Sequence record: DRR723986_5541
Length of the DNA stretch: 47,384 bases
Reading direction: 5' to 3' (one strand)
Part shown: one piece after another, positions 239 to 34,359 of the stretch
Numbering within the stretch: position 1 is the stretch's first letter
Layout: every line of letters begins with the position of its first letter
The notes under the pieces: generated by a model
The model's database searches: none
What the model was told of the DNA's origin: nothing
Seen by the model: only the letters and a program-made list of their open reading frames with translations
Made by a program: the position numbers and the translations under genes

Positions 239-508
239 ATGAAAGTGCAAGACGAAACCCACGTGAGAACTACCATCCGCGACTACTTTGCCGCGAACAT
301 GGGCAAAGACGCCAACTTTGGCGATGGCGACGACATTTTTGCCGAAGGACTGGTCAACTCCCTCTTCGCGCTCCAACTCGTCACATTTCTGGAAAACGCA
401 TTCAAAATCACGGTGGACAACGACGACCTGGACCTGCAAAACTTCCGCAGCGTCGACGCCATCGGCGCATTCGTAGCCCGCAAACAACGCAAACTGGCCG
501 CAGGCTAA
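239..508 (+). CDS. Discrete acyl carrier protein, FkbJ/ZmaD-like (glyceryl/hydroxymalonyl carrier)
   Basis: 89 aa; GLVNSLFALQLVTFLE motif (NSL in place of DSL, typical of hydroxy/methoxy/aminomalonyl ACPs); AGAGGA RBS at ~221-226. Confidence 0.9.
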   Translation: MKVQDETHVRTTIRDYFAANMGKDANFGDGDDIFAEGLVNSLFALQLVTFLENAFKITVDNDDLDLQNFRSVDAIGAFVARKQRKLAAG

Positions 509-540: not shown

Positions 541-1692
541 ATGCAAGACACAAGCGAACAACACTACGCCGAGCTGCGCAAGGAATTTGAAGACTTTGCC
601 GCCGAACACATTCAGCCCCACGCCGATGCCTGGGATCAGTCCGGAGCCGTACCCGAAACTGCGATTCAAGCTATGGCACAGGCGGGCTATCTGGGCTTAA
701 CAATTCCCGCGGAATACGGTGGTCGCGGCCTGGATCAGTACAGTTCCATGCTGCTTAACATTGCCATCGGGCAGGCCTGCTCCTCCATGCGCAGCCTGAT
801 TACCGTGCATTCCGCGCTCGTGGCCGAGACGATTGTCCGCTGGGGGACGCCGCAGCAAAAACAGGCGTGGTTACCCGATCTGGCCTCCGGGAACAAGATT
901 GCCGCTTTTGCGCTTTCCGAGCCCGAAACTGGTTCCGACGCTAAAAACGTGCACACGCGTTACACAAAACATGGCAGCACCTATAAAATCAGCGGCCGCA
1001 AAACCTGGACGACTTTTGGGCAGCGGGCCGACGTCTACCTTTGCATAGCCAATGGCGATGAAGGTGTTTGTGCGTTTTTACTTGACCGGAATAAGCCAGG
1101 CCTTTTGGTTGAGCCGCTCGGCGGCATGCTGGGCACGCGCGCCTCGCTCCTGGCCCAAATTGAGATTTCGGAGAGTGAAGTCTCAGAGTCCGACATCCTC
1201 GGTCGCCGCGGCCTCGGCTTCCTGCAAATTGTCAATACGGCTCTGGATAATGGACGCTTCAGCGTTGCATCCGGCTGCGTCGGTATTGCCAGAGCGGCAT
1301 TGCTTGCAGCGGTGGACCACGCCAACTCCCGCGAGCAATTCGGTCAAAAACTGCGCGAATTTCAGCTGATCCGTCGGCGCGGAACCGCACTGGCGCTGGA
1401 CGTTCGCAGCGCTACACTGCTCTGTGAAGATGCGGCGCGTCTGCGTGATGCGCGCAGCCCACAGGCAATCATTCGCACGTCGATGGCTAAATACCAGGCT
1501 TCGGCCGCCGCCAACCGCGCTGCCGACCACGCCGTCCAGATTCTGGGTGCGCTGGGCTGCCACGACTCCAGTCCGGTGCAGCGTTACTACCGCGACGCAC
1601 GTGTAATGGAAATTATCGAAGGTTCGACCGAGATGCAGGAATTGCTGATCGGAGAGCAGTTGTTTAACAACCCAGCGGCCCTGATCGGCTAA
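541..1692 (+). CDS. Acyl-CoA/acyl-ACP dehydrogenase, FkbI/ZmaE-like
   Basis: AFALSEPETGSD, GRKTWTT, REQFG and RYYRDARVMEIIEGSTEMQ ACAD motifs; lies between the ACP and FkbH. Confidence 0.92.
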   Translation: MQDTSEQHYAELRKEFEDFAAEHIQPHADAWDQSGAVPETAIQAMAQAGYLGLTIPAEYGGRGLDQYSSMLLNIAIGQACSSMRSLITVHSALVAETIVRWGTPQQKQAWLPDLASGNKIAAFALSEPETGSDAKNVHTRYTKHGSTYKISGRKTWTTFGQRADVYLCIANGDEGVCAFLLDRNKPGLLVEPLGGMLGTRASLLAQIEISESEVSESDILGRRGLGFLQIVNTALDNGRFSVASGCVGIARAALLAAVDHANSREQFGQKLREFQLIRRRGTALALDVRSATLLCEDAARLRDARSPQAIIRTSMAKYQASAAANRAADHAVQILGALGCHDSSPVQRYYRDARVMEIIEGSTEMQELLIGEQLFNNPAALIG

Positions 1693-1787: not shown

Positions 1788-2756
1788 GTGATTAGCATAC
1801 ACGCTATACGCGAGTATATCACCGGTGCGCGGCGCCCAGCTGCGGACCTGCCCGAATACGCTGAGCTGCGCGACGACGAGCGCGAATACTTTGCGCAGAT
1901 GGGCATCGAAACGTATTACGATGCGGGTGAAGTCGGTGCCTTTGAGCTGGCGCTGCGCGCTTCCGAGGAAGTTCTGGCCCAGAGCGGCGTTGGCGGCGAT
2001 GAGATTGACTACATCATCTACATCCGGCCGCGCATTCCCGATCAGTTTATCAGCTCCGATGCTACGCGCCTGCAGGATGCACTTGACGCGCAGCGCGCAT
2101 GTAGTTTTGGACTGAGCGATCTTGGCTGTGTGGACAGCACCATGGCACTGAAGCTGGCGCGCGACCTGCTGCTGGCCAACCGCCGCGCACGTTACGTTCT
2201 GATAGCTTATGGCCACAAACAATATTCGCCGCGCCGCTTCCGCATGCCGGTAACTATTCAGGGAGATGGCGGCGTAGCGGCCCTGATCGGCCGCGGCGAG
2301 AACAATACGATTGTGGATATCGAGCTTGAATCCAACGGGCGTTACTGGGATCTGTTTGCCATGCAATACCGCGACCGCACCTTTGCCGAGTACAGCGAGC
2401 AGGTATCCGATCCGCGCAAATACGGCTTTGAATTGGCCGTGGAAAGCAAAAATCGTTTTGTAGAGCTTAACAAACGACTGACCGAGCGCAATGGCCTCAG
2501 CCTTGAAGGCATGCAGCACGTCATGATGCAGAACATCGCCCGCCGCGCCTTTGACTATTATGAGATGGCGCTGGGCTGCAGCATTTCGCCCGTGTGCAAA
2601 ATGAACCTTGCGCAGTACGGCCACCTTGGCTGTGCCGATATTCTGTTAAACTACAAAACCGGTTTAGAGACCGGCATGGTCAATCCCGGCGACAACGTTC
2701 TGTTAATGAATAACAGTCCCGTTGCTGCCTGGAGCGGCGTAATCGTAAAAGCTTAA
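1788..2756 (+). CDS. 3-oxoacyl-ACP synthase III (FabH)-like protein with non-canonical triad
   Basis: 322 aa; Cys114 in DLGCVDS, GDGGVAALI motif, YGHLGCAD in place of FabH GNT; Gln248 at the FabH His position; GGAG RBS before GTG. Confidence 0.85.
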   Translation: MISIHAIREYITGARRPAADLPEYAELRDDEREYFAQMGIETYYDAGEVGAFELALRASEEVLAQSGVGGDEIDYIIYIRPRIPDQFISSDATRLQDALDAQRACSFGLSDLGCVDSTMALKLARDLLLANRRARYVLIAYGHKQYSPRRFRMPVTIQGDGGVAALIGRGENNTIVDIELESNGRYWDLFAMQYRDRTFAEYSEQVSDPRKYGFELAVESKNRFVELNKRLTERNGLSLEGMQHVMMQNIARRAFDYYEMALGCSISPVCKMNLAQYGHLGCADILLNYKTGLETGMVNPGDNVLLMNNSPVAAWSGVIVKA

Positions 2757-2807: not shown

Positions 2808-3923
2808 ATGTCCGCCGAAATCGTAAAAGTTAAAGTTGTTGCCTGGGACCTGGACAGCACCGTCTGGCATGGCGTCCTGACCGAAGGGGATGAGTTGGTG
2901 CTGCGCGATAATATCCGCAACATCATGCAGGAGCTGGACCGCCGCGGAGTCTTGCAGACGATTGTAAGCAAAAATACACATAGTGATGCCTGGCCGCGCC
3001 TGGTGGAATTTGGGCTGGACCACTACTTCCTTTACCCACAAATCAACTGGGGACCAAAGTCCGAATCCATCAAAGAAATCAAGGAGCGCATCAACATTGG
3101 ATTTGATGCGATTGCCTTTATCGACGATACGGCCTTTGAGCGCGACGAAGTCAGCTTTGCACATCCGCAAGTACAGACCTACGATGTTGACGTGATTGCC
3201 GGGCTGCTCGACCTGCCGCAGTTTATGCCGCGTTTTATTACCGACGAATCGGCACGCCGCCGCGCCATGTATCAGGCCGATGCAGAGCGCGATGTAGACA
3301 GTGAAAAATTTGAGAATAACCAGGAGTTTTTGCGCTCACTGGGCATGAAGTTCAAAGTAACGCCCGCCGTTGCCGAGGACCTAAAACGCGTGGAAGAACT
3401 GACCGTGCGCACCAATCAGTTAAATGCGACCGGCATAACCTATTCGTATGATGAACTGTTGGAGTTGATGAAGTCACCCGCGCACCTCTTGTACGTTGCC
3501 GAACTGGTGGACCGCTATGGCAGTTACGGAAAAATTGGCGTCGCCATGCTGGAGCGCGTCGATGACGCCTGGCGTATTAAACTCCTGCTGATGTCATGCC
3601 GTGTGATGGCGCGTGGTGTCGGCACGGTTTTACTCAACTATTTGATTAACAAAGCGCGCGCCAATGACATGCAGTTGGCGGCTGAGTTTAAACACACAGA
3701 CCGCAACCGCATTATGTTCATGACCTACCGCTTTGCCGGATTTACAGAGGGGCCTGAAATTGCGGGTGGAGGTGTTTTGCTGGAACATCCGCTGGCCACA
3801 GATCAGGCCTATCCAGATTACATTGAACTGGAATTGCCTGAGCTAATCGAAAAGGGGAGTGCCGGCACAAACGGGGCCGCGACATCTGTGCATTCAGATT
3901 CGCAGCCGGAACTCTCGAATTAA
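2808..3923 (+). CDS. fkbH: FkbH-like glyceryl-ACP synthase (HAD-IIIC phosphatase/glyceryl transferase)
   Basis: VAWDLDSTVW HAD motif, SKN, INWGPKS, FIDD, RTNQLN, DRYGSYG, LLMSCRV catalytic Cys; AAGGA RBS. Confidence 0.93.
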   Translation: MSAEIVKVKVVAWDLDSTVWHGVLTEGDELVLRDNIRNIMQELDRRGVLQTIVSKNTHSDAWPRLVEFGLDHYFLYPQINWGPKSESIKEIKERINIGFDAIAFIDDTAFERDEVSFAHPQVQTYDVDVIAGLLDLPQFMPRFITDESARRRAMYQADAERDVDSEKFENNQEFLRSLGMKFKVTPAVAEDLKRVEELTVRTNQLNATGITYSYDELLELMKSPAHLLYVAELVDRYGSYGKIGVAMLERVDDAWRIKLLLMSCRVMARGVGTVLLNYLINKARANDMQLAAEFKHTDRNRIMFMTYRFAGFTEGPEIAGGGVLLEHPLATDQAYPDYIELELPELIEKGSAGTNGAATSVHSDSQPELSN

Positions 3924-4003
3924 TGCTATTTTATCAATCAGAATCACTGCACTGCGATGTTAAACAGTGACCGCCAAGTATTTTATTAGTGCGAGATAGA
4001 CCT

Positions 4004-7000
4004 ATGAATAAACCAATCGCCATTATTGGAGTGTCCGGGCGTTTTCCGCAAGCGCCGGACGTACGTGCAATACATGCTATGCTGCGCGACGGTGGAGATG
4101 CCGTTAACCGTATCTCCAAAGACCGCATCTGCAATTCCACCTTGCCACTGCTATCCACAGACTTCCGCCCGATGGGGTGGTTGGACAATGTGGACCATTT
4201 TGACTACAAATATTTTAACATTTCCGGCCGCGAAGCCGAGCAGATCGACCCACATCAACGCATCATGCTGGAATGTGCCGTTGAATGTATCGAACATGCC
4301 GGTTATTCTACGGAGTCAGTTAACGGCAGCCGCATGATGGTCCTGGGGGCCAATGCCGACTACCAATACTACAAACACTTTGACCATTTTGAGCCGGCTA
4401 TGTTCCCGGGGAACACGCCCTTTTCAGTGGCCGGCCGTATCTCACGTTACCTGAACACCAAAGCACCTGCCTGGGTGGTCGACACCGGCTGCTCTTCGGC
4501 CTTGTTCCAGGTGGTTCAGGCCTGTGAATACCTGAATGCCGAGCTGGCTGAATCGGCCCTTGTCATCGCCTCGCGCGTCATGCTGGACCCCATCCGCGAA
4601 GGGTTAACTTATGATGTTGGTGTGACCTCGGATGACAGTAAAACACGAACATTTAATGCCGATTCCAAAGGCTCCGGGTCTTCCGAAGCCGTTGTGTCTG
4701 TATTGTTAAAACCGCTGGACCAGGCGCAGGCCGACGGCGATAACATTATGGCTGTGATTGCCGCCGCCGCCAGCAATTCGTCGGGCAACAGCGCCTCAAG
4801 CCTCACAGCCACAAGTAGCATAGCACAGACAGAAGTCTTGCTCCAAGCCTGGAATCAGGCAGAAATTGACCCGCGCTCCATCGGCTATATCGAGCCACAT
4901 GGAAGTGCGACGCGCCTCGGTGATCCAATCGAGGTTGCAGCTATCGATAAAGCCATGCGCAGCGCCACGCAGGATAAACACTTTTGTGCGCTGAGCTGTG
5001 TGAAAACCAATATTGGACATACCGACAAAGTGGCCGGCCTGGCCGGATTGTTAAAAGCCGTACTCAGCGTGCAGCACCGCGAACTCTACCCGTCGCTGCA
5101 TTTTGAGACGCCCAACCCATTCATTGACTTCGCCAATTCAGCCACATTCGTTAACACTGAACTGCGCACCTGGGAGCCGGCGGCTGAACATCCACTGCGT
5201 GCCGGTGTTTCGTCCTGGGGTTTTGCCGGCAACAATGTTCACGTTGTGCTGGAAGAAGCTCCGCAGCGAGCTGCCGATGAACGTCCGCGCGAACAGGCTT
5301 ATCCCGTCTGCATTTCATCCAAACGCGCCGACGGCGTGCATGCAACAATTCAAAAATTGCGTCAGCATCTGGAGTATTATCCGGATGTGGATCTGGCGGA
5401 CATCGCCTACACGCTTAATTGCGGCCGCGGACATTACCGCTATCGCTGCATTCTGGTGGCGCGTACAACCACCGAACTGCAGGAAATGCTGGCGCATGTG
5501 CCCGCCGAAGATGTCTCGTTTGATTCCGGTGCCGACGCAAGTCGGGGGCTCCTGTTCACTTGCTCCGAGGGCGGCGACTGGACGTCGGAAGACATTGAGT
5601 TGCAAGCCGCGGCCGATGCCGACTTTGCGCAGGCATACGCACAATTTTCAGCCTTCATCAAAGAAGACGATCGCGCAAACTCCGCATGCCTCGCAGTCAT
5701 CGGACAAACCTGCGCCTGGCACAGCCTGAAAAACCGCGGAATTACAAGCAATCGGATCCTGGGCCTCGGCGCAGGTGACATCAGCGTGCAACTGATTCTC
5801 GGTGAGCTGGACCACGAGCATGCGCTTGACATGGCCCGTGCCTACGATTCCGCCGGACCACCGGCCGACATGCAGGAGCGTGTCCAGGCACTTGTAGAAC
5901 GCGAAAGTGCCGCAGGCAAAGTGCTCTTTATCGAGCTGGGCCCCGGCGGCGAATTGAGTGCCGCGCTCGACAGCTGGCAACCGGCCGATCGCGATGTGAT
6001 GTTTGACGTACTGCGCTTTGATCCGCGTCAGTTCACGGCCGCCGCAGTGATGAGCGCCGAACTGTATGCCTGCCACTGGAATGTGGATTGGAAAACCTGG
6101 CATGCGGGCCGTGCCGGCCGGCGTATCAATCTTCCCGGTTATCAATTTGCAGGGCTGCGCGCCTGGGCACGGCCGGCCTGGACCGATGCCGAATTTGAGC
6201 AGTGGCAGCGCTCGCTTAAAGATCCAAATGTCAAAGCGCCCTCGCAGAACACGCAGAACGGCTCAGCCGAACAGGACTTCTTCAAAGCACCGGACCTGGG
6301 ACCGGCAATTGACGCTGCGGCAGTTGATGAATCATGGACTTCCATGCAACAACGCGTGGCTAAAATCTGGAAAGCAGTCCTCAAGATTGACACGCTCAAA
6401 CTGGATGACGACTTCTTTGGACTCGGTGGACATTCGCTTTTTGGCACAATGGTTACCAGCCGCATAGAGCAGGAATTTAAAGTGCGTTTGCAATTCAAGG
6501 ATGTTCTCAATTTCAGTACGGTGCGCCGTATGGCCGCCGGAGTAGAACAGCTGGCTGCGCAAGGGGCAAACAATGGCCACGCCGCGCTCGAAATCACCGC
6601 AGCGCCGTCAGCGGATGTCTATGACCTCTCATTCAGTCAGCGTCCCATGTGGATCATCAACCAGCTTGACGGTGGACAAAACCTGGCGTATAATCTGGTT
6701 TCTGCGCTGCATCTGGACGGCGAGTTTGATCAGGAGCGATTTGAGCATGCCTTCCGTCAGATGATCGCGCGCCACGAAGTATTCCGCACATCTTTTGAGA
6801 TGCTGGAAGACAAACCTGTGCAGCGCATTCATCCTTCGGTTGAATTTGCGATTGAACATCTGAGCACTGCTGCCGATACTATCGAAGACGCGGTCCACGC
6901 CTTTACGCGGCCTTTTAATCTGGCCGAGGCTCCAATCATCCGCGTAGCCCTGCTGGAAGTCAAAGGTGCTGGGCTGATGTTACTGGTCGATGTGCATCAC

Positions 7001-7945
7001 ATCGTCTTTGACGGATCTTCCGCTGCGATTTTCCTGCAGGAACTCGCGGCGCTGTATCGCGGTGAACAGCTGCCGCCGGCAACCTTGCACTACAAAGATT
7101 TTGCGAACTGGCAGGCCGAATATCTTGCTGGTCCGCGCGGGCAAAGTCAGGGAGAATGGTGGCGTGAGAAATTTGCTACGCCGCCGCGGCCACTCGACCT
7201 GCCCACAGACTTCCCACGACCTGCCCAGCGCGGGTTTTCCGGCAACCGTCTGACAAACAGGCTGGAGCGTGAACTTGTCGATCGCGTGCGCGCAGTAGCG
7301 CGCGAACGTGAGGTCACAGTCTTCATGTACCTGCTGGCCTCGTACTACACACTGCTGCAGCGTTATTCCGGTCAGAACGACATCGTGGTGGGAACACCGG
7401 TGGCCGGCCGTTCACACGTAGCTCTGGAGCGCATGCCCGGGATGTTTGTTAATACTCTGGCTCTGCGTGCGCAGTTGGATGCTGATGCTGGATTCGACAA
7501 GTTGCTGGCGCATGTTAAGAGCGTCTGTCTGGATTCCTACGCGCATCAGGAGTATCCAATCGAGCTGCTCGTGGACGAACTGCGCCTGGAGAGAGATGCC
7601 TCGCGCAATCCTATGTTCGATGTAATGTTGCTCCTGCAGAACGTGGCGTCAACAAACGTGCAGATAGACGAAAAACTGGCACTGCGGCATCATGAATTTG
7701 CGCCGCAAACTTCCAAGTTTGACCTTAGTTTCGAGTTCGTTGAAGATGGTCAGGATCTCATTCTGGGCGTAGAGTATTCGACTGACTTGTTTGAGCAGGC
7801 CAGTATTCAAACGATGGTAGATGACTTTGTGACTATTTTGCGTGCAACGGCAGAAAGCGCGACTGTTGCACCGGTAGACATACCGATAGGAGTGCAATTC
7901 AAAAGCATCGGCAGTGATTCAGATGCCGAGTTTGGCGAGTTCTAA
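4004..7945 (+). CDS. Type I PKS/NRPS hybrid: KS - degenerate AT - ACP/PCP - condensation domain (ORF track start 3989 GTG; ATG 4004 preferred)
   Basis: KS triad DTGCSS (Cys 4490), EPHGSAT (His 4898), NIGH (His 5018); AT active-site position reads GLGAG (5762-5776); carrier GGHSL (Ser 6434); C domain HHIVFDG (6995); no KR/DH motifs. Confidence 0.92.
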   Translation: MNKPIAIIGVSGRFPQAPDVRAIHAMLRDGGDAVNRISKDRICNSTLPLLSTDFRPMGWLDNVDHFDYKYFNISGREAEQIDPHQRIMLECAVECIEHAGYSTESVNGSRMMVLGANADYQYYKHFDHFEPAMFPGNTPFSVAGRISRYLNTKAPAWVVDTGCSSALFQVVQACEYLNAELAESALVIASRVMLDPIREGLTYDVGVTSDDSKTRTFNADSKGSGSSEAVVSVLLKPLDQAQADGDNIMAVIAAAASNSSGNSASSLTATSSIAQTEVLLQAWNQAEIDPRSIGYIEPHGSATRLGDPIEVAAIDKAMRSATQDKHFCALSCVKTNIGHTDKVAGLAGLLKAVLSVQHRELYPSLHFETPNPFIDFANSATFVNTELRTWEPAAEHPLRAGVSSWGFAGNNVHVVLEEAPQRAADERPREQAYPVCISSKRADGVHATIQKLRQHLEYYPDVDLADIAYTLNCGRGHYRYRCILVARTTTELQEMLAHVPAEDVSFDSGADASRGLLFTCSEGGDWTSEDIELQAAADADFAQAYAQFSAFIKEDDRANSACLAVIGQTCAWHSLKNRGITSNRILGLGAGDISVQLILGELDHEHALDMARAYDSAGPPADMQERVQALVERESAAGKVLFIELGPGGELSAALDSWQPADRDVMFDVLRFDPRQFTAAAVMSAELYACHWNVDWKTWHAGRAGRRINLPGYQFAGLRAWARPAWTDAEFEQWQRSLKDPNVKAPSQNTQNGSAEQDFFKAPDLGPAIDAAAVDESWTSMQQRVAKIWKAVLKIDTLKLDDDFFGLGGHSLFGTMVTSRIEQEFKVRLQFKDVLNFSTVRRMAAGVEQLAAQGANNGHAALEITAAPSADVYDLSFSQRPMWIINQLDGGQNLAYNLVSALHLDGEFDQERFEHAFRQMIARHEVFRTSFEMLEDKPVQRIHPSVEFAIEHLSTAADTIEDAVHAFTRPFNLAEAPIIRVALLEVKGAGLMLLVDVHHIVFDGSSAAIFLQELAALYRGEQLPPATLHYKDFANWQAEYLAGPRGQSQGEWWREKFATPPRPLDLPTDFPRPAQRGFSGNRLTNRLERELVDRVRAVAREREVTVFMYLLASYYTLLQRYSGQNDIVVGTPVAGRSHVALERMPGMFVNTLALRAQLDADAGFDKLLAHVKSVCLDSYAHQEYPIELLVDELRLERDASRNPMFDVMLLLQNVASTNVQIDEKLALRHHEFAPQTSKFDLSFEFVEDGQDLILGVEYSTDLFEQASIQTMVDDFVTILRATAESATVAPVDIPIGVQFKSIGSDSDAEFGEF

Positions 7946-10900
7946 TGCACAGGCGGCGCGGTCGATTGAGTATGGATACAATTAGTCTGGCAAAAATCAG
8001 AAGCGATGCACGACTGCAACGTGAGCGTGACTATTGGCGTGAAGTGTCATTAGCCGATACGCCTGCTTTGCAATTGGGTTCGGCTGCCCCAAACCCAATA
8101 AATACTCCGGCATATACCAAGTCGCCACAAGAGACTTTTGCCTTTGAGCTGGATGCCGCCGCTTTGTTAACAATTGCCAAAAACTCCGATGCCGCCCTCT
8201 TCACGATTTTGGCTGCCGCTGTTCGTCACCTGGGGCTGCGCTGCGGGCATTCTGGTGAACGCCTTATTTTTACCGCGCCCTTTAGCAGCGAATATATCGG
8301 CGATGGACTTGCAGACTTGCTGCCGCTTAAGTTGAACGCGCAGCCGCAAGACTCAGTGCGTGCATTGCTCAACTCTACGCGCAGTGCCGTCCAGGGAGCC
8401 CATAAACATCAGAACTACCCTCTGGCCGCGATCCTGCACCAGGCAAACAGTGACGGCGAGACTTCCAATCTGCCCGCAGCTCAAGCCCACCCGTCCGCTC
8501 AGTCTGCTCTGGAACAACCCGCAACCGTGATTCTGCTCGAAAACCTGCAGAACCCGCGCTACCTGGAAGAGACTGAGCCAGGCCTGCTGTTTAAGTTTAA
8601 GCGCAGCGAAACGCGCCTGCACTGCACAGTTAAACTCGGGAGTCAGCAGTCGGCAGATGTTAAACTGAAGACGCTGGCAGAGATTTTGCAGCAGCTCCTG
8701 CAAGCTTATCCTTCCAGTCTGCAGTCCAGCTTGGCGCAGCTTGAAATTATTGGACCTGCATTGCGCAGTCGGCTGCTACATGAATGGGCGCATGCCGACT
8801 CCTCTCGGCCAAACATGGTGCCAAACATGGGGCCAAACATGGCGCCAAGCATGGGGCCAAGCATGGGGCCAAGCTCAGCGCAAAACACAGCCGCAAGCTC
8901 CGGCTCTGAGGAAGACAAGTTTGTTTCTCTTCCGGACATGGTTTTAGAGCAGGCCGCGCTGACACCCCAGGCTCCGGCCTTGTTGGATCACAAACGGACA
9001 CTTAGTTATGCCGAACTTAACACGCGTATTAACAATCTTGTAGCCGCGCTGCACGCGCACGGTGTTGGTCCCGAAACGGCTGTTGCCGTCTGCATGCGCC
9101 GCATAGCATATCTCCCCGCAACCATGCTGGGCGTAATGGCTTCCGGTGCCATGCTCGTTCCGCTTGATCCCAAATATCCAACTGAACGACTGGAATACAT
9201 GCTGCGTGACAGCGGCGCAGAGTTGGTCGTGACAGATATTGCAGGTGAGCTGCGCGCGCAGGGATTACAAGTTGCATGTATTCCGCCTTTTGTCTCAGAC
9301 GCGGCGGGAGGCCAGGAACAGAGCAGGTCGGACCAATCTAACGCCCGGACTATTTACCCACGGTCGGCGGCCTACTGCATCTACACTTCCGGTTCTACCG
9401 GCGAGCCCAAAGCCGTTGTTGTTGCACATGCTGCCGTGGCTAAACTTATTACTTGGTGTGCTGAGGTGTTTACATCCGAGGACTTGCAGTGTGTGGCTGC
9501 TACAACTTCGGTCTGTTTTGACATCTCCGTGTTTGAGCTGTTTGCGCCGCTGGCCTTTGGCGGTAGTGTGCTTGTCGCCGCCGATGCTTTTGATCTGGCT
9601 GATCATCATCTGGCGGATAAGCTGACTTTGTTAAACACCGTGCCAAGTGCAATCGCCGCGCTCCTGAACAAGGGCGCTCTGCCAAACAATCTGCGCGTTG
9701 TTAACCTTGCCGGAGAAGCGCTGCGCAGCAGCCTGGCCCAGTCAGTCCTGGAGGCCGTGCCCGGCGCAAAGCTGTTTAATCTGTTCGGGCCGACAGAAAC
9801 GACTGTTTACGCAAGTTTTGCGCAGGTTTTGGCACAGGATAATCCGCCTGCAATTGGACGTCCGGTCAGCGGTACGCTGGTGTATGTTCTCGATGACAAC
9901 ATGCAGCTCCTGCCACCGGGCATTCACGGTAATTTATACATCGGTGGAGAGCTGTTGGCTCGTGGCTATTTTAAGCGCGGCGCAACAACTGCCACGCGAT
10001 TTGTGCCCTGTCCCTTCGATACTTCCGGTGCCGGAGCACGCCTGTATCACACAGGTGATATTGCCAGTTTTACAACTAATGGCCAACTGCTCTTTCACGG
10101 CCGCGCCGACGACCAGCTCAAGATTCGTGGGTACAGGATCGAACCGGGTGAGATAGAAGTGCGCCTGCTGGAGTCTAAAGCAGTCGAGGCCTGCGCCGTA
10201 ATTGTGGACCGTCCGCAGACCGAGGATTCGCTTCAGCACGCGCGCCTGGCAGCCTTTGTGCAAATCAGCCGAGCATCGGCTCCAGATGTTGATGTTAACA
10301 GTCTCCGGCAGGAACTTAGTGCACGTGTGCCCAACTGGATGCTTCCGACTTTGTGGTTTGAGATTGAAGCTCTGCCAAAACTGCCCAACGCAAAAGTTGA
10401 TAAATCGGCTCTGCGTGAGCTGATTCGTGAACGCGAATCGGCACCGGAGGACGCTCAACCGGCTGCTGATGAGGCTGCATCCAATGACACTGGAATTCAG
10501 GCAATTGAGGCCCAGTTGTTGCAAATTTGGCGCGACGTTTTACGCCAGCCGGGAATCAAACGCAATGACAACTTCTTTGCGATCGGCGGCGACTCAATCC
10601 TGGCGCTGCAAATCGTGGCGCGTGCTGCACAGGCACAGTTGACTTTCCAGCCGGGCCAGATGTTTTTGCATCAAACTCCGGCCGCACTGGCTCCACATGT
10701 TCGCCGCGGTGTTAAACATCAGGCCGAACAGGGAATCGTGACGGGGAGCGCACCACAAACGCCGGTGCAGCGCTGGTTTGGCGCTTTAAACCTGCTGCAA
10801 CCCGCACACTGGAACCAAGCCGTGATTCTTTCGGCTCCAGTCGGTCTCACGCGCGCGCGTCTCTCCCAAATTGCGCTTGAGTTGCAGCAACATCACGATG

Positions 10901-13900
10901 CCTTGCGCATGTTTGTACGTCCCGACGGCATGCTCGAATTCGCGGAACACGCCGAACTCAGTTTAACGGAATTGCACTGCAAAAACCTGAGCAGCGCCGA
11001 AGCAGTTAAACAACATGCCCAGTCCGTGCATGCCGGGCTGAATATCAATGTCGGACCAATTTGGTCTTTGCTCCTCCTGCACTGCGCCGACGAAAGTATT
11101 GTGATTGTCAGCATTCACCATCTGGCAGTCGATGTCGTTTCCTGGGGTGTTTTGCTCGAAGATATCAAGCACATTAACAGTTCCCTGGCAGCAAGCCGGC
11201 CGATAGTTTTACCGGATAAAACGACTGCCTTCCGCGACTGGGCGCGCCGGCTTGGCAAAATTGACATCTCCGCGCACATGCCCGCACTGAGGGAAGTGCT
11301 TAACATTGAGCGCTACAAAGACATCGCTCCATTGCCGCGCGATTTTGAGGTTGATGAATCCCAGGTAAATATTGAAGCCAATCAGCTTATTATCTCGGCA
11401 ACGCTGGATGAGAACACCACAAAAAGTCTGCTGCACGACGTAACTACGGTGTATCGCACCAGAATAGACGAGTTGTTGCTGGCCGCTCTGGCGCGTGCAT
11501 TGCGAGCCTGGACGGGTGAGGACCGCTTGTTAATTGCTCGCGAGGCGCATGGACGTCAGGCGCCGGGCGCGCTTAACATGCCGGACGTCTCGCGCACAGT
11601 TGCCTGGTTTACAACTATTACACCGATTGCATTGGAACTGCCCTATAACGCCGATTGGGAAGAGATTGTGCCTTTGCTGAAGGAACAGGTGCGCACAACC
11701 ACCGAACAAGGTTTTGTGTTTAATATTGCGCACTACCTGCAAAAGCAGTTTCAAGAACTTCCCGCTGCCGAAATTGTGTTTAACTACCTCGGGCAGTTGG
11801 GTGATTCTTCAGGTGCTACGAACGACGCAAGTGATCCGATAAGCCAGGAGTGGCACTTGCGCCAGCTCTCTCCGGGCTTACTGCGCGGAGCGCAGAATCA
11901 GCGTCCCTGGTTACTTGAAGTTAATGCCGGCGTCACCGACGGCCAATTTCACATGTATCTTGCCTTTAGCCCCGAACTGCATGAGCAGGACGGTATGCAG
12001 GCTCTGCTGGAGCGCAGTATCGATGAGTTGGAAAGCCTGGTGCAACACTGTTTAAGTGTGGGCAACGGCAAATATACGCCGTCGGATTTCCCCGTGTTAA
12101 ACTCTGCCCAGGGGCTTATGCAGCAGAATGCGGCACTTAAACTCAATCAGCCTCAGCTGGATGCCGTCATTAAACAAATTGGTGGGGAAGTGTTGCGCCC
12201 ACCACGTCTGGAATCTATCTTACCTCCGGCACCGCTGCAAGCCGGAATGCTCTTTTTTGGGATGCTGCAGGATGATTCGGGTGCGTCCTCCTCGCTCTAC
12301 ACGCAGGTCTTTGACTTTTCCATCACCGGTGTGTGTGACGCTGAAAAATTGCGCCAGGCCTGGAATCAGGTGTTTAACAGGCACAGTGCCTTGCGTGCCG
12401 CTTTTGTCTGGTCTGCAGATGGTGTGCTCCTGCAGCTGATTCACGAAACTGTTGAAGTGCCCTGGAAGGAACATGACCTAAGTTCCGTTGCAGTGGCGCG
12501 TCAGGAGCAAATGTTTAAAACCCTGCAAAATACTCAGGTTCTGCAGGGTTTTGATGCTGAACAAGCGCCGCTCAGTCGCTTCTTTTTCTATCGTACCGGA
12601 CCCGCGAATTGGCGTCTTTTCTGGGTGCATCATCACGCAATTGTTGACGGCTGGTCCCTGCCAATTGTGCTTGGTGAAGTGCTGCACGTCTACAGGGATT
12701 TAGTGCAGGAACGCGCCTCAGAGCTTAACATCGCGCCTTCCTATTCTAATTATGCGGAATGGTTAATCAAGGCTGATGTTGACAAAGCGCGCGCATTCTG
12801 GCGTGCTGAGCTGCAAGGGTTTTCCGCAGTTACGGATCTGGGGTTTGACCGCGTATTCACAGATTCCACCATGCGTGACGATCGTGAGTTTGAACATGTC
12901 TTCAGCAAAACCATGACTGAAGATTTGGTCGCTGCTGCGCGCAAATACCGTGTGACACTTAACACTTTGATGCAGTATGCCTGGGCGCGTGTTCTGGCCT
13001 TAACAACCGGGCGTGACGAAGTCCTGTTTGGCTTTGCAGTGTCCGGTCGTTCGCCGCAGCTGCCGGATATGGACGCTATGGTCGGCATGTTTATAAACAC
13101 AATTCCAGCGCGCTTTAATTTTTCCAGTGTTTTAACGTTGGAACAAGAACTGCAACTGGCGCGCGACAATATGGCGCGGCGTGAGGAGTACGCTTACGTC
13201 ACCTTGCCTCAGATTCTGGGCTGGAGTGATATTTCTGCTGCTGAGTTGTTTAACTCAATTCTTGTGTTCGAGAACTTTCCCTTCGACAAGGAGTTGATGC
13301 AGGACTATGCCGGTATGCAGGTCCAGCATGCGCAGGGGCGGGAACGCACAAATTACCCGCTTACTTTAGTCTTTCGTCATTCGGATTTACTGCGTTGTAC
13401 TTACTCATATGACGCCACGAGTTTAAGTCCGGAACGTGTTAAACAGTTGCACGCGCTCTTCGAGCTAGTGCTTCATGAACTGCTCGCGCCCGGACGGGCT
13501 AATCAGGTTTTTTCTCTGTTGTCCACCGTACCGGAATCCACAGCAGGCACCGAGTCAGTTTCCGGTCAGCAATCTGAAAGTTCCCAGTCTGTATTTTCAG
13601 TGTTTAAGTCGGTCTGCGCTCAATATCCGGAGCAAATTGCTCTGCGCGGATCATCGGTTAACTGGACCTACGCGGACCTGATGCGGCATTCACAAGAGCT
13701 GGCTGCCTGGCTCTGGCGCTGGGGCGTACGTCCGGGTGACTGCGTTGCAATTGATTTGCCGCGTTCGCCGGCGGCGGTGGCACTTCTACCGGCGATTCTG
13801 CAGATTGGAGCACATTATCTGCCATTGGATCCTCAGGCCCCGGCACGCCGTCGCGAATTTATGTTGCAGGCCGCGGCTTCACGTTTTCTGGTATGTCGCG

Positions 13901-16878
13901 AACGGCCGACCTGGCTGCCACCCGAATGTCTTGCCATTGAAATGGACAGCCTGAATTTGGATCAGGATGTCGAATCCCTGCCGGAGCTTGATGTTTCGGC
14001 GGAAGCGGCGGCATACCTGATGTTTACGTCCGGTTCCACAGGCAGACCAAAAGGTGTGATAGTTCCAAACCGTGGGATTTTGCGCCTAACGGTTAACAAT
14101 CAATTCTGTGAACTTGAGCCTGGAGACTGTTTCCTGCACTTGGCCTCGCCGGCATTTGACGCATCCACCTTTGAAATCTGGGCTCCACTTCTGAATGGTG
14201 CGACTCTGGAAGTGTATGAAGAAGCTGAGATTGATCCTGCGACCCTGGCTGCGAGAATTGAAAGCAGTCAGGTTACACATATGGTGTTAACTACTGGCTT
14301 GTTTCACGCTCTCGCCGCGGAGCAGGCATGGATGTTTAAACCCTTAAAAGCTCTGCTTGTTGGTGGAGACGTTGTTGCACCGGCACGTGTTAAACAAGTG
14401 CAGGAAGTTTGTCCGCAGCTTAATATAATTAATGGTTATGGCCCAACTGAGAACACGACATTTTCGAGCACTTACAGTATGCCGCACAGTTTGTCGGCCA
14501 GTCAGCTGCGCGTGCCGATTGGGGCTCCGTTACCTGACAGCTGTTGCCTGATACTTGATAAGAACATGCAGCCGCTGCCGGCCGGCGCTCTGGGCGAACT
14601 CTATCTTGGTGGAGCAGGTTTGGCACTGGGATACACGCGCCGGCCGGGCCTGACAGCCGAGCGATTTGTACCAGATCCAACCAGTGCCACAGGAGCAAGA
14701 CTTTATCGCAGTGGTGACCTGGCACGAATCCTGCCCGACGGATCGATCGACTTTCTTGGTCGCCGCGATAAACAAGTTAAAGTTCGTGGATTCCGGATCG
14801 AACTCAGTGAGGTTGAAACACAGCTGCGCACTGATTCTGCCATACGGCAGGCGGCGGTTGTAATGCACAATCAACAGCTCTGTGCTTTTGTTGCCCTACA
14901 CGCTGAGAATGAAGAACTTAATCAGCCACAAAATGACGTGGAGACAAGTAAGAGCGGCACAAGTACTGAGGCAATTGCCGCGCCAATACCCCTTGAAAGC
15001 GCTCAGACCTCAGAAATACGCAGGCGCCTTAAACAGTTTCTGCCCGACTACATGCTGCCCGGCAAGGTATATGCACTCACACAGTTGCCCTTAAATGCCA
15101 GTGGCAAAATTGATCGCCGGGCGCTGTTGGAATTGATACCTGCAAGTGTGGCACAAGTGGGCGCGGTGCCACAGACTGCAGAGCTTCAGCATGCTGACAC
15201 AGCGACAAACAAGATGGCATTTGCTGAGGCTTTGCTGGAAATCATGCGAACCTTGTTGAATGTACCAGGCATGCATTTGGACGACGGTTTTTTTGAGCAA
15301 GGTGGAAATTCAATATCGGCAATTCAGTTGGTGGCACGCGCGAGTAATGCCGGAATGCGCGTCCGCCTGCGCGACGTTTTTGAGAATCCAAGGGCACGTG
15401 AACTGGCGGAATGTGTGCAAACTGGTGCAAGTGATCGACGAGCAGATATTGCCGACCTTCCGCTGCAACTATTGCCGGCACAGGCCTGGTTCTTCGAAAA
15501 AGAATTTGCGGACGCACATCATTTTAATCTTGCGGTTCTCCTGCGGCTTAAACGAGCAGTCGAGCCTGCCGATATCGCGCGCGCTGTTAAACAGCTCCTT
15601 GCAACACATCCACAGTTAACAAATGTGTTCTCCTTAACAGAGCGCGGCCCCCGAGTTCACCGCACTGCAGACGCATCGGCAATTTTGCATGAAGTTGAAC
15701 TGGACGGACCTAGTGATGTTAAAACGTATACCGCCACGGCACAGTCGGCATTTACTCTGGATGGCACAGCGCTATTCGGTGTGCATGTGATACGTTTGCG
15801 CGATGAAAGCTTGCGGTTGTTTATTGTGGCGCACCATTTGATTATGGATGTTGTTTCGCTGCGTATTATTGTTGATGAGCTGCAGACGAGTTTAATTCTA
15901 CCACAAGCGGACTCCCGGCCGGGCCATCAACCAGCTGTGGAAGAAGGGGCGCGAATTCAGGCGCATAATCTGCGAAAGTTAATCGCAAGCCCCGGACTTG
16001 AAGAAGAACTGAAATATTGGCGTGACTTAACTTCTGTCAGTTTTGATGATCTGCCGGCAGCCGGCCTTGCCGAGGGAGGCCCAGTAGAAAGTGGCATCAA
16101 TACATTAACATTTGAATTGTACGCAGCCTCTGCACTTGATTTACAGAAGCGCAAAACCGCTATTGATTCGCTTCTACTGGCTGCGCTGTCAACCAGTTTA
16201 CGCGAATGTATGGGCATGCAGGACTTCCTGATTGAGTTGGAGCATCACGGCCGTGATACGATTTACGCTTCCGCTGATGACAACCTTGAACTTTCGCGCG
16301 CGCTTGGCTGGTTCACGATCATGTACCCGCTGCGAGTGAAGCCGCAGTTTAATCTGCCGGCCACACTTAAACAAATTGAAGCCGACCGTGATTCGATTGC
16401 ACATGATGGATTGGCCTTCGCCGTCGCGCGTTACCTTGCGCCGGAGCAATACCCCGGGCTGTTAAGCCTGCCGCCGGCTCCAGTTGTGTTTAACTACCTG
16501 GGGGATACCGATGCTTCATTCTCTACCGATCTCTGGGAGTTTGCTGCCGAGTCAATGGGTGAAGATCGAGCCAATTCAAATGCCGCGCAGCAGCAGCTGA
16601 CCGTTAATGTGTGGAGTGAAGCTGATAGTTTGCACGCGCGTATAATTTGTGCCGCCGATCGTTGTAGCCGGAGTGCAATCGAGCAACTTGCCGATAAGTA
16701 CACCGAGCAATTAGCGCTACTCCTTGAGCAAATGCAGCTTGTTTCCGAAGAACACGCGGAAGTTGCTGCGCCCACGGAAACCATTGAAAAGGCGAAAGAT
16801 GCGGGCCTCGACGCCAGGAATATGGCGGCTTTGATGGAGCAGATTCAACAGTCCGGCAAAGGAGCGATGGACCGGTGA
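7945..16878 (+). CDS. NRPS1: truncated C-like domain - A(Ala-like) - T - E - C(DCL) - A(Val-like) - T - E (alternative start ATG 7972)
   Basis: A cores YTSGSTGEPK (~9382) and FTSGSTGRPK (~14023); T motifs GGDSI (10585) and GGNSI (15301); E motifs HHLAVDVVSW/EAHGR and HHLIMDVVS/EHHGRD; C HHHAIVDGWS (12628); TAATG overlap with the PKS stop. Confidence 0.95.
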   Translation: MHRRRGRLSMDTISLAKIRSDARLQRERDYWREVSLADTPALQLGSAAPNPINTPAYTKSPQETFAFELDAAALLTIAKNSDAALFTILAAAVRHLGLRCGHSGERLIFTAPFSSEYIGDGLADLLPLKLNAQPQDSVRALLNSTRSAVQGAHKHQNYPLAAILHQANSDGETSNLPAAQAHPSAQSALEQPATVILLENLQNPRYLEETEPGLLFKFKRSETRLHCTVKLGSQQSADVKLKTLAEILQQLLQAYPSSLQSSLAQLEIIGPALRSRLLHEWAHADSSRPNMVPNMGPNMAPSMGPSMGPSSAQNTAASSGSEEDKFVSLPDMVLEQAALTPQAPALLDHKRTLSYAELNTRINNLVAALHAHGVGPETAVAVCMRRIAYLPATMLGVMASGAMLVPLDPKYPTERLEYMLRDSGAELVVTDIAGELRAQGLQVACIPPFVSDAAGGQEQSRSDQSNARTIYPRSAAYCIYTSGSTGEPKAVVVAHAAVAKLITWCAEVFTSEDLQCVAATTSVCFDISVFELFAPLAFGGSVLVAADAFDLADHHLADKLTLLNTVPSAIAALLNKGALPNNLRVVNLAGEALRSSLAQSVLEAVPGAKLFNLFGPTETTVYASFAQVLAQDNPPAIGRPVSGTLVYVLDDNMQLLPPGIHGNLYIGGELLARGYFKRGATTATRFVPCPFDTSGAGARLYHTGDIASFTTNGQLLFHGRADDQLKIRGYRIEPGEIEVRLLESKAVEACAVIVDRPQTEDSLQHARLAAFVQISRASAPDVDVNSLRQELSARVPNWMLPTLWFEIEALPKLPNAKVDKSALRELIRERESAPEDAQPAADEAASNDTGIQAIEAQLLQIWRDVLRQPGIKRNDNFFAIGGDSILALQIVARAAQAQLTFQPGQMFLHQTPAALAPHVRRGVKHQAEQGIVTGSAPQTPVQRWFGALNLLQPAHWNQAVILSAPVGLTRARLSQIALELQQHHDALRMFVRPDGMLEFAEHAELSLTELHCKNLSSAEAVKQHAQSVHAGLNINVGPIWSLLLLHCADESIVIVSIHHLAVDVVSWGVLLEDIKHINSSLAASRPIVLPDKTTAFRDWARRLGKIDISAHMPALREVLNIERYKDIAPLPRDFEVDESQVNIEANQLIISATLDENTTKSLLHDVTTVYRTRIDELLLAALARALRAWTGEDRLLIAREAHGRQAPGALNMPDVSRTVAWFTTITPIALELPYNADWEEIVPLLKEQVRTTTEQGFVFNIAHYLQKQFQELPAAEIVFNYLGQLGDSSGATNDASDPISQEWHLRQLSPGLLRGAQNQRPWLLEVNAGVTDGQFHMYLAFSPELHEQDGMQALLERSIDELESLVQHCLSVGNGKYTPSDFPVLNSAQGLMQQNAALKLNQPQLDAVIKQIGGEVLRPPRLESILPPAPLQAGMLFFGMLQDDSGASSSLYTQVFDFSITGVCDAEKLRQAWNQVFNRHSALRAAFVWSADGVLLQLIHETVEVPWKEHDLSSVAVARQEQMFKTLQNTQVLQGFDAEQAPLSRFFFYRTGPANWRLFWVHHHAIVDGWSLPIVLGEVLHVYRDLVQERASELNIAPSYSNYAEWLIKADVDKARAFWRAELQGFSAVTDLGFDRVFTDSTMRDDREFEHVFSKTMTEDLVAAARKYRVTLNTLMQYAWARVLALTTGRDEVLFGFAVSGRSPQLPDMDAMVGMFINTIPARFNFSSVLTLEQELQLARDNMARREEYAYVTLPQILGWSDISAAELFNSILVFENFPFDKELMQDYAGMQVQHAQGRERTNYPLTLVFRHSDLLRCTYSYDATSLSPERVKQLHALFELVLHELLAPGRANQVFSLLSTVPESTAGTESVSGQQSESSQSVFSVFKSVCAQYPEQIALRGSSVNWTYADLMRHSQELAAWLWRWGVRPGDCVAIDLPRSPAAVALLPAILQIGAHYLPLDPQAPARRREFMLQAAASRFLVCRERPTWLPPECLAIEMDSLNLDQDVESLPELDVSAEAAAYLMFTSGSTGRPKGVIVPNRGILRLTVNNQFCELEPGDCFLHLASPAFDASTFEIWAPLLNGATLEVYEEAEIDPATLAARIESSQVTHMVLTTGLFHALAAEQAWMFKPLKALLVGGDVVAPARVKQVQEVCPQLNIINGYGPTENTTFSSTYSMPHSLSASQLRVPIGAPLPDSCCLILDKNMQPLPAGALGELYLGGAGLALGYTRRPGLTAERFVPDPTSATGARLYRSGDLARILPDGSIDFLGRRDKQVKVRGFRIELSEVETQLRTDSAIRQAAVVMHNQQLCAFVALHAENEELNQPQNDVETSKSGTSTEAIAAPIPLESAQTSEIRRRLKQFLPDYMLPGKVYALTQLPLNASGKIDRRALLELIPASVAQVGAVPQTAELQHADTATNKMAFAEALLEIMRTLLNVPGMHLDDGFFEQGGNSISAIQLVARASNAGMRVRLRDVFENPRARELAECVQTGASDRRADIADLPLQLLPAQAWFFEKEFADAHHFNLAVLLRLKRAVEPADIARAVKQLLATHPQLTNVFSLTERGPRVHRTADASAILHEVELDGPSDVKTYTATAQSAFTLDGTALFGVHVIRLRDESLRLFIVAHHLIMDVVSLRIIVDELQTSLILPQADSRPGHQPAVEEGARIQAHNLRKLIASPGLEEELKYWRDLTSVSFDDLPAAGLAEGGPVESGINTLTFELYAASALDLQKRKTAIDSLLLAALSTSLRECMGMQDFLIELEHHGRDTIYASADDNLELSRALGWFTIMYPLRVKPQFNLPATLKQIEADRDSIAHDGLAFAVARYLAPEQYPGLLSLPPAPVVFNYLGDTDASFSTDLWEFAAESMGEDRANSNAAQQQLTVNVWSEADSLHARIICAADRCSRSAIEQLADKYTEQLALLLEQMQLVSEEHAEVAAPTETIEKAKDAGLDARNMAALMEQIQQSGKGAMDR
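8809..8874 (+). repeat. In-frame 12-bp tandem repeat (5.5 copies) in the NRPS1 linker
   Basis: CCAAACATGGTG CCAAACATGGGG CCAAACATGGCG CCAAGCATGGGG CCAAGCATGGGG CCAAGC = PNMV PNMG PNMA PSMG PSMG PS. Confidence 0.95.
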
Positions 16879-31043: not shown

Positions 31044-31739
31044 ATGCAGATAGTTTTTTTGCCCTTTGCCGGTGGCAGCAGCTTTTCATACAACGTCCTG
31101 CGCGAGCACCTTTCCGGTGTTGATTCGCTGCTCATGCTTGAGCCGCCCGGCCGCGGACGTCGCCTGCGTTCCCCCTTGTTGCGCAACTTTGATGCAATTG
31201 TCGATGACATTGTGACGCAGATGCAGGACAAGCTGGAGGAAGGCTACACGCTGTTTGGCCACAGCATGGGGGCGCTCCTGGTCCGCGAAGTTGTCCATGA
31301 GTTACGCAAACGCTCTATGCCTTTGCCAGTTCACATGGTTTGCACGGGATGTGAAGCTCCCTGCCATTCGCCGAAGGGGCGCAACTATCACGAGCTATCG
31401 CGCGCTGAATTGATTGAAGTTTTGCGCAACTTTGGCGGCAGCCAGGGTGAAATTCTGGATCATGCTGAGTTGATGGAAATGCTGGAACCCGTGTTTCGCG
31501 CCGACTTCGAAGCTGTTGAAACTTATCGCTACGTTGAGCGGCCGCCGCTTGACATTCCGCTGACCGTTATGATAGGATCAGAGGAAGACATAATCCCGGA
31601 AGAGGCGCAAGCCTGGAGCCGTGAATCAAATCTTATGCGTCCACTCATTACGCTTGCGGGTGGACACTTCTTTCTTTTTGAACAGGCTTCCGAGTTTGTG
31701 AAGCACCTGTTGATTTTTGCACAGACCCCACGGCTCTAG
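31044..31739 (+). CDS. Type II (editing) thioesterase
   Basis: LPFAGGS, PGRGRR, FGHSMGA nucleophile elbow, RADF, GGHFF. Confidence 0.93.
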   Translation: MQIVFLPFAGGSSFSYNVLREHLSGVDSLLMLEPPGRGRRLRSPLLRNFDAIVDDIVTQMQDKLEEGYTLFGHSMGALLVREVVHELRKRSMPLPVHMVCTGCEAPCHSPKGRNYHELSRAELIEVLRNFGGSQGEILDHAELMEMLEPVFRADFEAVETYRYVERPPLDIPLTVMIGSEEDIIPEEAQAWSRESNLMRPLITLAGGHFFLFEQASEFVKHLLIFAQTPRL

Positions 31740-31741
31740 AA

Positions 31742-33367: not shown

Positions 33368-33427
33368 GATGCGCATGTTGAACGAGCAGCACAGGCATAC
33401 AGGCTCCAAACTCCAGGACGTTTTGAT

Positions 33428-34342: not shown

Positions 34343-34359
34343 CTCTGGAGTGCGCCGGT

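Follow-up and report, generated by a model that had tools for sequence, protein, structure and literature searches.

The question raised by this locus is how a KS module with a dead AT obtains its extender unit. The locus lies in a window of 47,384 nucleotides, which is the whole stretch of sequence record DRR723986_5541 that was analysed, and it encodes a KSIII-type protein within an extender cassette. The sequence-only reading of this DNA had proposed that the protein moves a hydroxymalonyl or glyceryl unit from carrier to carrier in place of an AT. Delivery of hydroxymalonyl in this manner is supported by motifs, gene neighbourhood, and a two-way control. We estimate a probability of about 0.7 that this is a thiolase-fold transacylase of the OzmC family, which would stand in for the missing AT by carrying hydroxymalonyl over from the free ACP to that of the module.

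Extender cassette and partner module

The features of the window are shown in Table 1. The KSIII gene is located between the ACAD and FkbH genes with the free ACP gene ahead, and the intergenic gaps are 32-95 nt, which is the arrangement of an ACP-linked extender operon. Domain matches confirm the placement between ACAD and FkbH beside a PKS with a dead AT that had been claimed for this gene. The open reading frame call, the codons, and the FabH alignments also confirm Cys114, Gln248, and His279 at the places given to them. The window begins just 5' of the free ACP gene, and for the genes further upstream the analysis turned to relatives, where the usual gene order is 3HCDH-ACP-ACAD-KSIII-FkbH. 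Two or three short palindromic repeats that are REP- or terminator-like are located 5' of the ACP gene (1-95). The arms at 1-15 and 17-31 form a perfect 15-nt palindrome and a 26-nt copy at 63-88 is 85% alike.

Table 1. Positions of the cassette, the partner module, and the remaining cluster genes in the window.
Feature	Position	Strand	Basis or remark
Free-standing ACP (FkbJ/OzmE type), putative hydroxymalonyl donor carrier	239..508	+	PP-binding match; same position in relatives
Acyl-ACP dehydrogenase ACAD (FkbI/OzmD type), putative second oxidation of glyceryl-ACP	541..1692	+	Acyl-CoA_dh domains; synteny
OzmC-family KSIII-fold gene	1788..2756	+	GTG start, 322 aa; domain matches, alignments, tree
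Codon of Cys114	2127-2129
Codon of Gln248	2529-2531
Codon of His279	2622-2624
Codon of Asp284	2637-2639
FkbH glyceryl transferase/phosphatase	2808..3923	+	TIGR01686 269.6 bits, cut-off 146.65
Hybrid module KS-AT remnant-ACP-C, no KR; putative acceptor	3989..7945	+	KS triad C168/H304/H344 intact
AT remnant (approximate limits)	5552..6163	+	hhalign
NRPS, two modules with epimerisation domains	7945..16878	+	Domain matches, A-domain codes
NRPS, three A modules, final C-T without A domain, TE	16875..30422	+	Domain matches, A-domain codes
Type II TE, cyclic-peptide ABC exporter, Band-7 protein, PPTase; cluster end	31044..35139	+	Domain matches

The window module is a KS module without an active AT. 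Its AT motif is GLGAG instead of GHSxG, with Gly594 at the place of the catalytic Ser. The AT remnant was undetected by the AT profile HMM and was revealed by profile-profile comparison alone. The region that follows the KS aligns with the N-terminal AT half (hhalign probability 96.3, E 1.5e-9, 98 columns), and an AT-like FIELGP motif at the C-terminal end of the remnant is joined to that half. The middle of the AT with the catalytic His appears to be deleted, as read off the hhalign alignment. PF00698 (AT) has no match on either the KSIII protein or the PKS of the window, and the GHSxG motif of Acyl_transf_1 proteins of the ZmaF/ClbG type was not found on them.

The GxGxG motif and an upstream Gln are invariant in all 18 aligned partner modules. 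Of the 75 KS domains examined, 74 keep the Cys-His-His set, and only OzmJ KS2 departs from it. In 13 loci, the partner module is of a second class, KS-ACP-reductase, which retains the linker alone and exhibits no AT match (domains read for L054). Complex prediction with the KSIII dimer and the post-KS region returned a score of 0.00, to which the tool assigns no weight either way.

The A-domain codes of the first NRPS are presumably those of Ala and Val, and the codes of the second are taken by us as Pro-like, uncertain, and Ser. The last module of the second NRPS (final ~1.3 kaa) is C-T-TE without an A domain, which is also the case in the closest relative (G003). The first NRPS begins with ~320 residues (7945-8900) that have no strong domain match; they follow the terminal C domain of the PKS protein and possibly represent a degenerate C half. 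A second KS-AT remnant-ACP-C module was observed in G003 (L099, G003:C1:232957-236967) in a divergent operon without its own cassette; it may share the single cassette and enzyme of that genome.

Fold and active site of the KSIII-type protein

The AlphaFold2 model of the protein (pLDDT 96) exhibits the KSIII (thiolase) fold. NatS, ChlB3, and DpsC rank at the top of the structural alignment (Z ~35, rmsd 2.3-2.6, 308-311 residues). FabHs trail them by about 1-2 Z units (Z 33-34) and are therefore so close behind that the fold alone is indecisive. The matches to ACP_syn_III and ACP_syn_III_C are weak, and true FabHs rank first in whole-protein searches. The best PDB match of the C-terminal 102 residues is ChlB3 (E 0.001, among the 7 sequences listed).

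A protein of this fold could be a condensing enzyme, namely an ordinary FabH that initiates chains, an enzyme that makes a glycolyl starter, or an RkD/Mad16-type synthase that makes a tetronate from glyceryl-ACP. Tetronate operons likewise encode FkbH and a free ACP and, according to the available text of PMC7489565, use unoxidised glyceryl-ACP for chain release. The active site argues against such a role. HMMER alignment to solved FabH structures places Gln248 (in VMMQNI) on the FabH His (PHQAN) and His279 (in YGHLGCAD) on the FabH Asn (GNTS), so that the Cys-His-Asn triad of FabH is lost and its positions are occupied by C114, Q248, and H279. The protein scores far under the cut-offs of the fabH models, with 58.5 against 292.1 for TIGR00747 and 65.5 against 249 for NF006829. 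An ordinary FabH, which the sequence-only reading had named as a finding that would speak against its proposal, is thus unlikely as judged from triad and scores, and we give a condensing role of any of these kinds very little credence.

Conservation was counted in the ungapped rows of 272 unique matches above 120 bits, which include some low-scoring rows from outside the family. C114 is kept in 263/266 rows, H279 in 263/264, and Asp284 in all 264. Gln is found at position 248 in 244 of 264 rows and His in nine, eight of which are locus members of the OzmC-type family. In the ChlB3 alignment, YGHLGCAD faces LGHLGASD and MQN faces YMN, so H279 and D284 fall on the GHLGASD motif of ChlB3. The invariant Asp284, the occasional His at position 248, and this alignment make Cys114-His279-Asp284 the better reading, and the catalytic triad is likely to be this set, as in ChlB3. 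The Cys-Gln-His triad put forward earlier had overlooked Asp284. By alignment, C114-H279-D284 corresponds to the Cys/Ser-His-Asp set of the ChlB3, CerJ, and DpsC transacylases. The available part of PMC9573744 gives C113-H296-D301 for ChlB3, which performs ACP-to-ACP transfer, and the same set for CerJ, and that of PMC12308425 gives S118-H297-D302 for DpsC.

The members with His248 form a subclade with the motif SHNLS (L040, L043, L097, L125, L130, L197, L198, and L201). They keep the His-Asp pair, and the KS is AT-less where seen. This subclade would also suit a condensing role.

The OzmC-type family and its near exclusion from AT-bearing clusters

Relatives of the protein number 255 at an E threshold of 1e-20, and 39 representatives reach 1e-30 in the 50% library. 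The family loci (30 from genomes and 47 from metagenomes) belong to Bacteroidota, Actinomycetota, and others, and 37 matches are found in 29 of 401 Streptomyces genomes. The FastTree tree was constructed from 109 sequences after removal of >72% redundancy, with every third background representative and a midpoint root. The family forms one clade (support 1.0) that is separate from FabH-like proteins and from the other GHxG proteins of the loci. The sequence-only reading had proposed a phylogeny against FabH, ChlB6, CerJ, DpsC, and RkD; the present tree was built without named reference sequences, such as those of ChlB3, CerJ, DpsC, or RkD. None of the curated NCBIfam models reaches its cut-off for the 7 family members scanned, and mean column identity in the family is 58%. 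The broad OzmC-type family without a curated model is a new finding.

The family takes its name from oxazolomycin biosynthesis, which is covered here through two reviews, PMC9057759 and PMC6164871, in their available text. According to PMC9057759, ozmBCDEFG encode FkbH, OzmC, ACAD, ACP, O-methyltransferase, and 3HCDH. OzmC has 325 aa, is closest to DpsC (25/39%), is called crucial, and is a candidate discrete AT that passes methoxymalonyl-ACP to module 11. In PMC6164871, OzmC is listed among the non-malonyl trans-ATs, next to KirCII and ZmaF. The earlier statement that no KSIII-mediated extender delivery had been described therefore has to be withdrawn.

Our comparison uses the syntenic orthologue in genome G249 in place of the deposited Streptomyces albus OzmC sequence, and no protein named OzmC is among the matches listed for the window protein. 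The G249 cluster exhibits the ozm gene order with an O-methyltransferase, a tandem AT, and a second KS with Cys-Thr-His as in OzmJ. The sizes also match (ACAD 366, 3HCDH 287, and frames of 7781, 1204, 5062, and 854 aa). The protein encoded at the OzmC position in G249 has 37% identity with the window protein over 316 aa (E 3e-71), belongs to the same clade (support 1.0), and shares the C, Q-N, GHLGxxD, and NSPVAAW motifs. A 480-aa ORF beside the G249 cassette was considered as OzmA by its size; it is ATP synthase beta and this match was dropped. The oxazolomycin-type cluster directly adjoins ATP synthase genes there (L113, 3400-7400; beta confirmed).

A neighbourhood set of 36 of the 77 loci has more than 4 kb on each side. 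FkbH and ACAD are found within 10 kb in 33 of them and an AT-less KS in 35; in the remaining one (L069), the KS falls below the threshold set for a KS call. A cis-AT module is present in none and a free AT in two. For Streptomyces, 34 of the 37 matches were read, plus L027 separately, and two were left out. The 33 loci that are wide enough include FkbH and ACAD in 24, an AT-less KS in 28, and an intact AT in one. Free intact ATs near the KSIII gene were seen in L014 and L015, and a cis-AT module in L117.

The reverse test covered all 59 cassette-type ACAD matches in the 401 Streptomyces genomes, with ~10 kb read on each side. Five candidates were scored per genome, and divergent cassettes are missed by this search. 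Two kinds of call were made by hand: the L192 KS (149 bits) was counted as AT-less, and the contig-cut AT fragments in L152 and L154 were counted as AT. The co-occurrence with AT-dead KS modules that the sequence-only reading had proposed to survey is borne out. Among the cassettes with the KSIII gene (n = 13), 11 have an AT-less KS only, one has an intact AT (L117), and one has no modular KS, against none with an AT-less KS only, 35 with an intact AT, and 11 with no PKS seen among the cassettes without the gene (n = 46). The Fisher p is 7e-10 on raw counts and 1e-5, 3e-4, and 0.01 after ACAD clustering at 85, 75, and 70%, values in which kinship remains and which are not clean probabilities. 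The ozm clusters do encode OzmM, ~45 kb away. The KSIII gene and true ATs show near mutual exclusion beside extender cassettes, and this observation is new here.

The exclusion bears on the possibility that loading of the module falls to a FabD or to a cis-AT working in trans, and that the KSIII protein performs tailoring or editing, i.e. O- or N-acylation with hydroxymalonyl of the CerJ/ChlB6 kind or hydrolysis of stalled units. CerJ has the same triad and is described as making malonyl esters in the sources available to us. Candidate ATs also exist. In a PF00698 search of ten genomes, several of which are incomplete MAGs, the closest relatives (G002 and G003) have only a FabD-sized AT, the cis-AT of the cluster, and one large unrelated frame, so that no discrete AT other than the FabD-sized one is present, and G004, G406, and G410 have one small AT each in all. 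The cis-AT of the G003 cluster, in a KS-AT-KR module upstream, is intact and of the malonyl type, and it might act in trans. This alternative does not predict the exclusion from AT-bearing clusters. Four of the five Bacteroidota clusters that were read across cassette and module have no intact AT on either side, and the fifth is contig-cut upstream. In oxazolomycin, methoxymalonate forms part of the backbone, and the available text of PMC9057759 describes OzmC as crucial. We therefore regard tailoring or editing as unlikely. A dedicated upstream trans-AT that suffices for loading, which would have spoken against the sequence-only proposal, was not seen in the relatives.

Several loci depart from the usual arrangement. 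In an incomplete MAG (L013/G004:C25), the family gene is located beside a KS-AT remnant-KR-ACP-C module and no cassette was found, including no cassette-type ACAD; in G004, FkbH is one of the domains of a 3892-aa NRPS frame, which also includes those of an FkbM methyltransferase and a glyoxalase. In G005:C25 (485640-489554 and 514408-515376; L109, L014), the family gene is accompanied by a stand-alone A domain with a Ser code and by ACP, ACAD, and 3HCDH. FkbH was not found in the G005 genome, nor in G379. The G005 cluster, in which intact ATs are also present, is a candidate for aminomalonyl delivery. A different KSIII protein of the GHAGPSD type is encoded ~4.6 kb from a methoxymalonyl cassette in L151, L156, L157, L176, and L183, and its neighbours in L151 are a P450, a Rieske protein, and a divergent KS-KR protein. 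Its presence near these cassettes is perhaps an independent recruitment.

Proposed transfer, predicted product, and known systems

By the established pathway, FkbH would place glycerate on the free ACP, and a 3-hydroxyacyl dehydrogenase and ACAD would oxidise glyceryl-ACP to hydroxymalonyl-ACP. The gene of the former is presumed to lie just upstream of the window, as in relatives. Cys114, activated by His279-Asp284, would accept hydroxymalonyl as a thioester, which the KS-AT remnant-ACP-C module would then receive on its ACP. Gln248/Asn249 replace the decarboxylation His of FabH, and the unit would thus be moved intact; the loss of His at this position is not universal since nine rows retain it. 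The intact KS of the module would then elongate the upstream peptidyl chain with hydroxymalonyl.

The order of the last two steps could be reversed: the module KS would condense with hydroxymalonyl while this is still bound to the free ACP, and the chain thus extended would be shuttled to the module ACP by the KSIII protein. Such a shuttle is compatible with the triad and with the co-occurrence with AT-less modules, and ChlB3 carries a completed acyl chain between ACPs in the literature available to us. The family is highly conserved (mean column identity 58%) even though the upstream chains vary widely (a polyene in ozm, peptides here), which fits a small common substrate better, and we consider the shuttle improbable. 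Transfer of hydroxymalonyl before condensation is the preferred reading.

The position of the module was read from G003, in which the KSIII protein is 79% identical to that of the window. Its line consists of an acyl-loading A-T, T-C-A-T-KS-AT-KR-T, a 4403-aa NRPS (three modules, two of which are Thr-coded), the cassette, KS-AT remnant-ACP-C, and NRPSs that match those of the window. The module is internal to the NRPS line in G003 and in four Bacteroidota relatives that were read whole, NRPS modules ending in A-T precede it in relatives, and both dehydrogenases are in the cassette. The unit is therefore an extender. A glycolyl starter or a tetronate, which the sequence-only reading had kept as alternatives, is unlikely with an internal module, with both glyceryl-ACP-consuming dehydrogenases co-located (ACAD in the window, 3HCDH in relatives), and with a TE of the line's own. 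Chain release from unoxidised glyceryl-ACP would involve Agg4/Agg5 partners, and the scan of 19 window proteins revealed none that resembles Agg4/Agg5.

Without a KR and a methyltransferase, the unit would be a 4-amino-2-hydroxy-3-oxo-acyl unit inside a lipopeptide. Its oxidation to a vicinal tricarbonyl may follow, which is a weaker inference. YM-47141 and YM-47142 from Flexibacter sp. contain leucine-derived 2,3-dioxo-4-amino-6-methylheptanoic acid according to the available text of PMC8954713 and PMC7291377. This residue corresponds to the oxidation product of an amino acid that has been elongated with hydroxymalonate and has not undergone ketoreduction. The composition of both compounds is assumed by us to be cap, Phe, 2 Thr, Dah, Ala, Asn, and Leu, and both published formulas were reproduced by calculation from it. 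The module order in G407 and G408 is X-Thr-(Thr)-hydrophobic, KS, hydrophobic-(Asn)-Gly, where some A domains are missed by the motif search and the Thr, hydrophobic, Asn, and Gly assignments follow code meanings that we take as given. A Thr-(Thr)-hydrophobic, KS, hydrophobic order was also observed in L003, L004, L005, L007, L009, L010, and L030 from Chitinophaga, Mucilaginibacter, and Taibaiella, whose clusters are candidates for YM-47141-like compounds. The link of the Bacteroidota relatives to YM-47141 is suggestive only. The window line is longer than YM-47141 would need and a different peptide is predicted for it. No gene cluster for YM-47141 or YM-47142 was found in the accessible portions of open-access papers that name the compounds.

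A wider reading is offered tentatively, at somewhat less than even odds. OzmC could be the prototype of widespread thiolase-fold extender loaders that displace the AT in NRPS-PKS hybrids, are paired with a conserved pseudo-AT module, and serve hydroxy-, methoxy-, and probably aminomalonyl-ACP. In that case, the Bacteroidota members would supply the missing clusters for YM-47141-type depsipeptides, which are protease inhibitors with a vicinal tricarbonyl, and the product of the window would be a lipopeptide that contains such a unit and has not been described. Citations of OzmC as an exceptional case go back to 2010 and apparently rely on genetics, and no in vitro test of it was found in the open-access literature. 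The small free-standing proteins, free ACP donors, and single-module acceptors make the claim on OzmC directly testable. The family would provide a marker to predict hydroxymalonate in "AT-less" NRPS-PKS modules from KSIII genes that are now labelled FabH or hypothetical, and an AT-independent way to install oxygenated extenders in engineered assembly lines. It also points to candidate clusters for tricarbonyl depsipeptides.

Other systems were compared with the window protein. Foxicin, alpiniamide (AlpE), and oxazolismycin (OxaC) were rejected as precedents, where the available descriptions give a fused FkbH or a starter-loading KSIII. A link to amipurimycin/miharamycin found no confirmation in the open-access literature. 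The available text of PMC6395733, PMC12090451, PMC6113372, and PMC5318452 is without bearing on the extender-transacylase claim.

The KSIII transacylases ChlB3, CerJ, and DpsC resemble the window protein in the thiolase fold and in Cys(Ser)-His-Asp with the Asp five residues past the His. They differ in that identity is ~17-20% and in that they handle starter units or finished aryl groups or esterify sugars and do not deliver extenders; the OzmC-type family forms its own clade in the tree, from which their named sequences are absent. The trans-ATs ZmaF and ClbG and the cis-AT ZmaA are described, in the sources available, for the job proposed here, i.e. passing an ACP-linked extender to a module ACP, but they differ in fold and nucleophile (AT Ser against the thiolase Cys of the window protein). 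The tetronate synthases RkD and Mad16 are also FabH-like and encoded with FkbH and a free ACP, but they use unoxidised glyceryl-ACP, whereas the OzmC-type setting has both dehydrogenases, a TE, and an internal module.

OzmC of oxazolomycin from Streptomyces albus JA3453, as far as the reviews describe it, is DpsC-like as well and is encoded between ACAD (ozmD) and FkbH (ozmB) in an ACP-linked cassette with an AT-less PKS. Unlike ozm, the window cassette has no O-methyltransferase and hydroxymalonyl is predicted. In the window, just one KS-AT remnant-ACP-C module within an NRPS line is the putative acceptor, whereas that of ozm is a multimodular trans-AT PKS. The idea of KSIII-type extender loading is therefore not new, and the window gene is the probable hydroxymalonyl, single pseudo-AT-module counterpart of OzmC.
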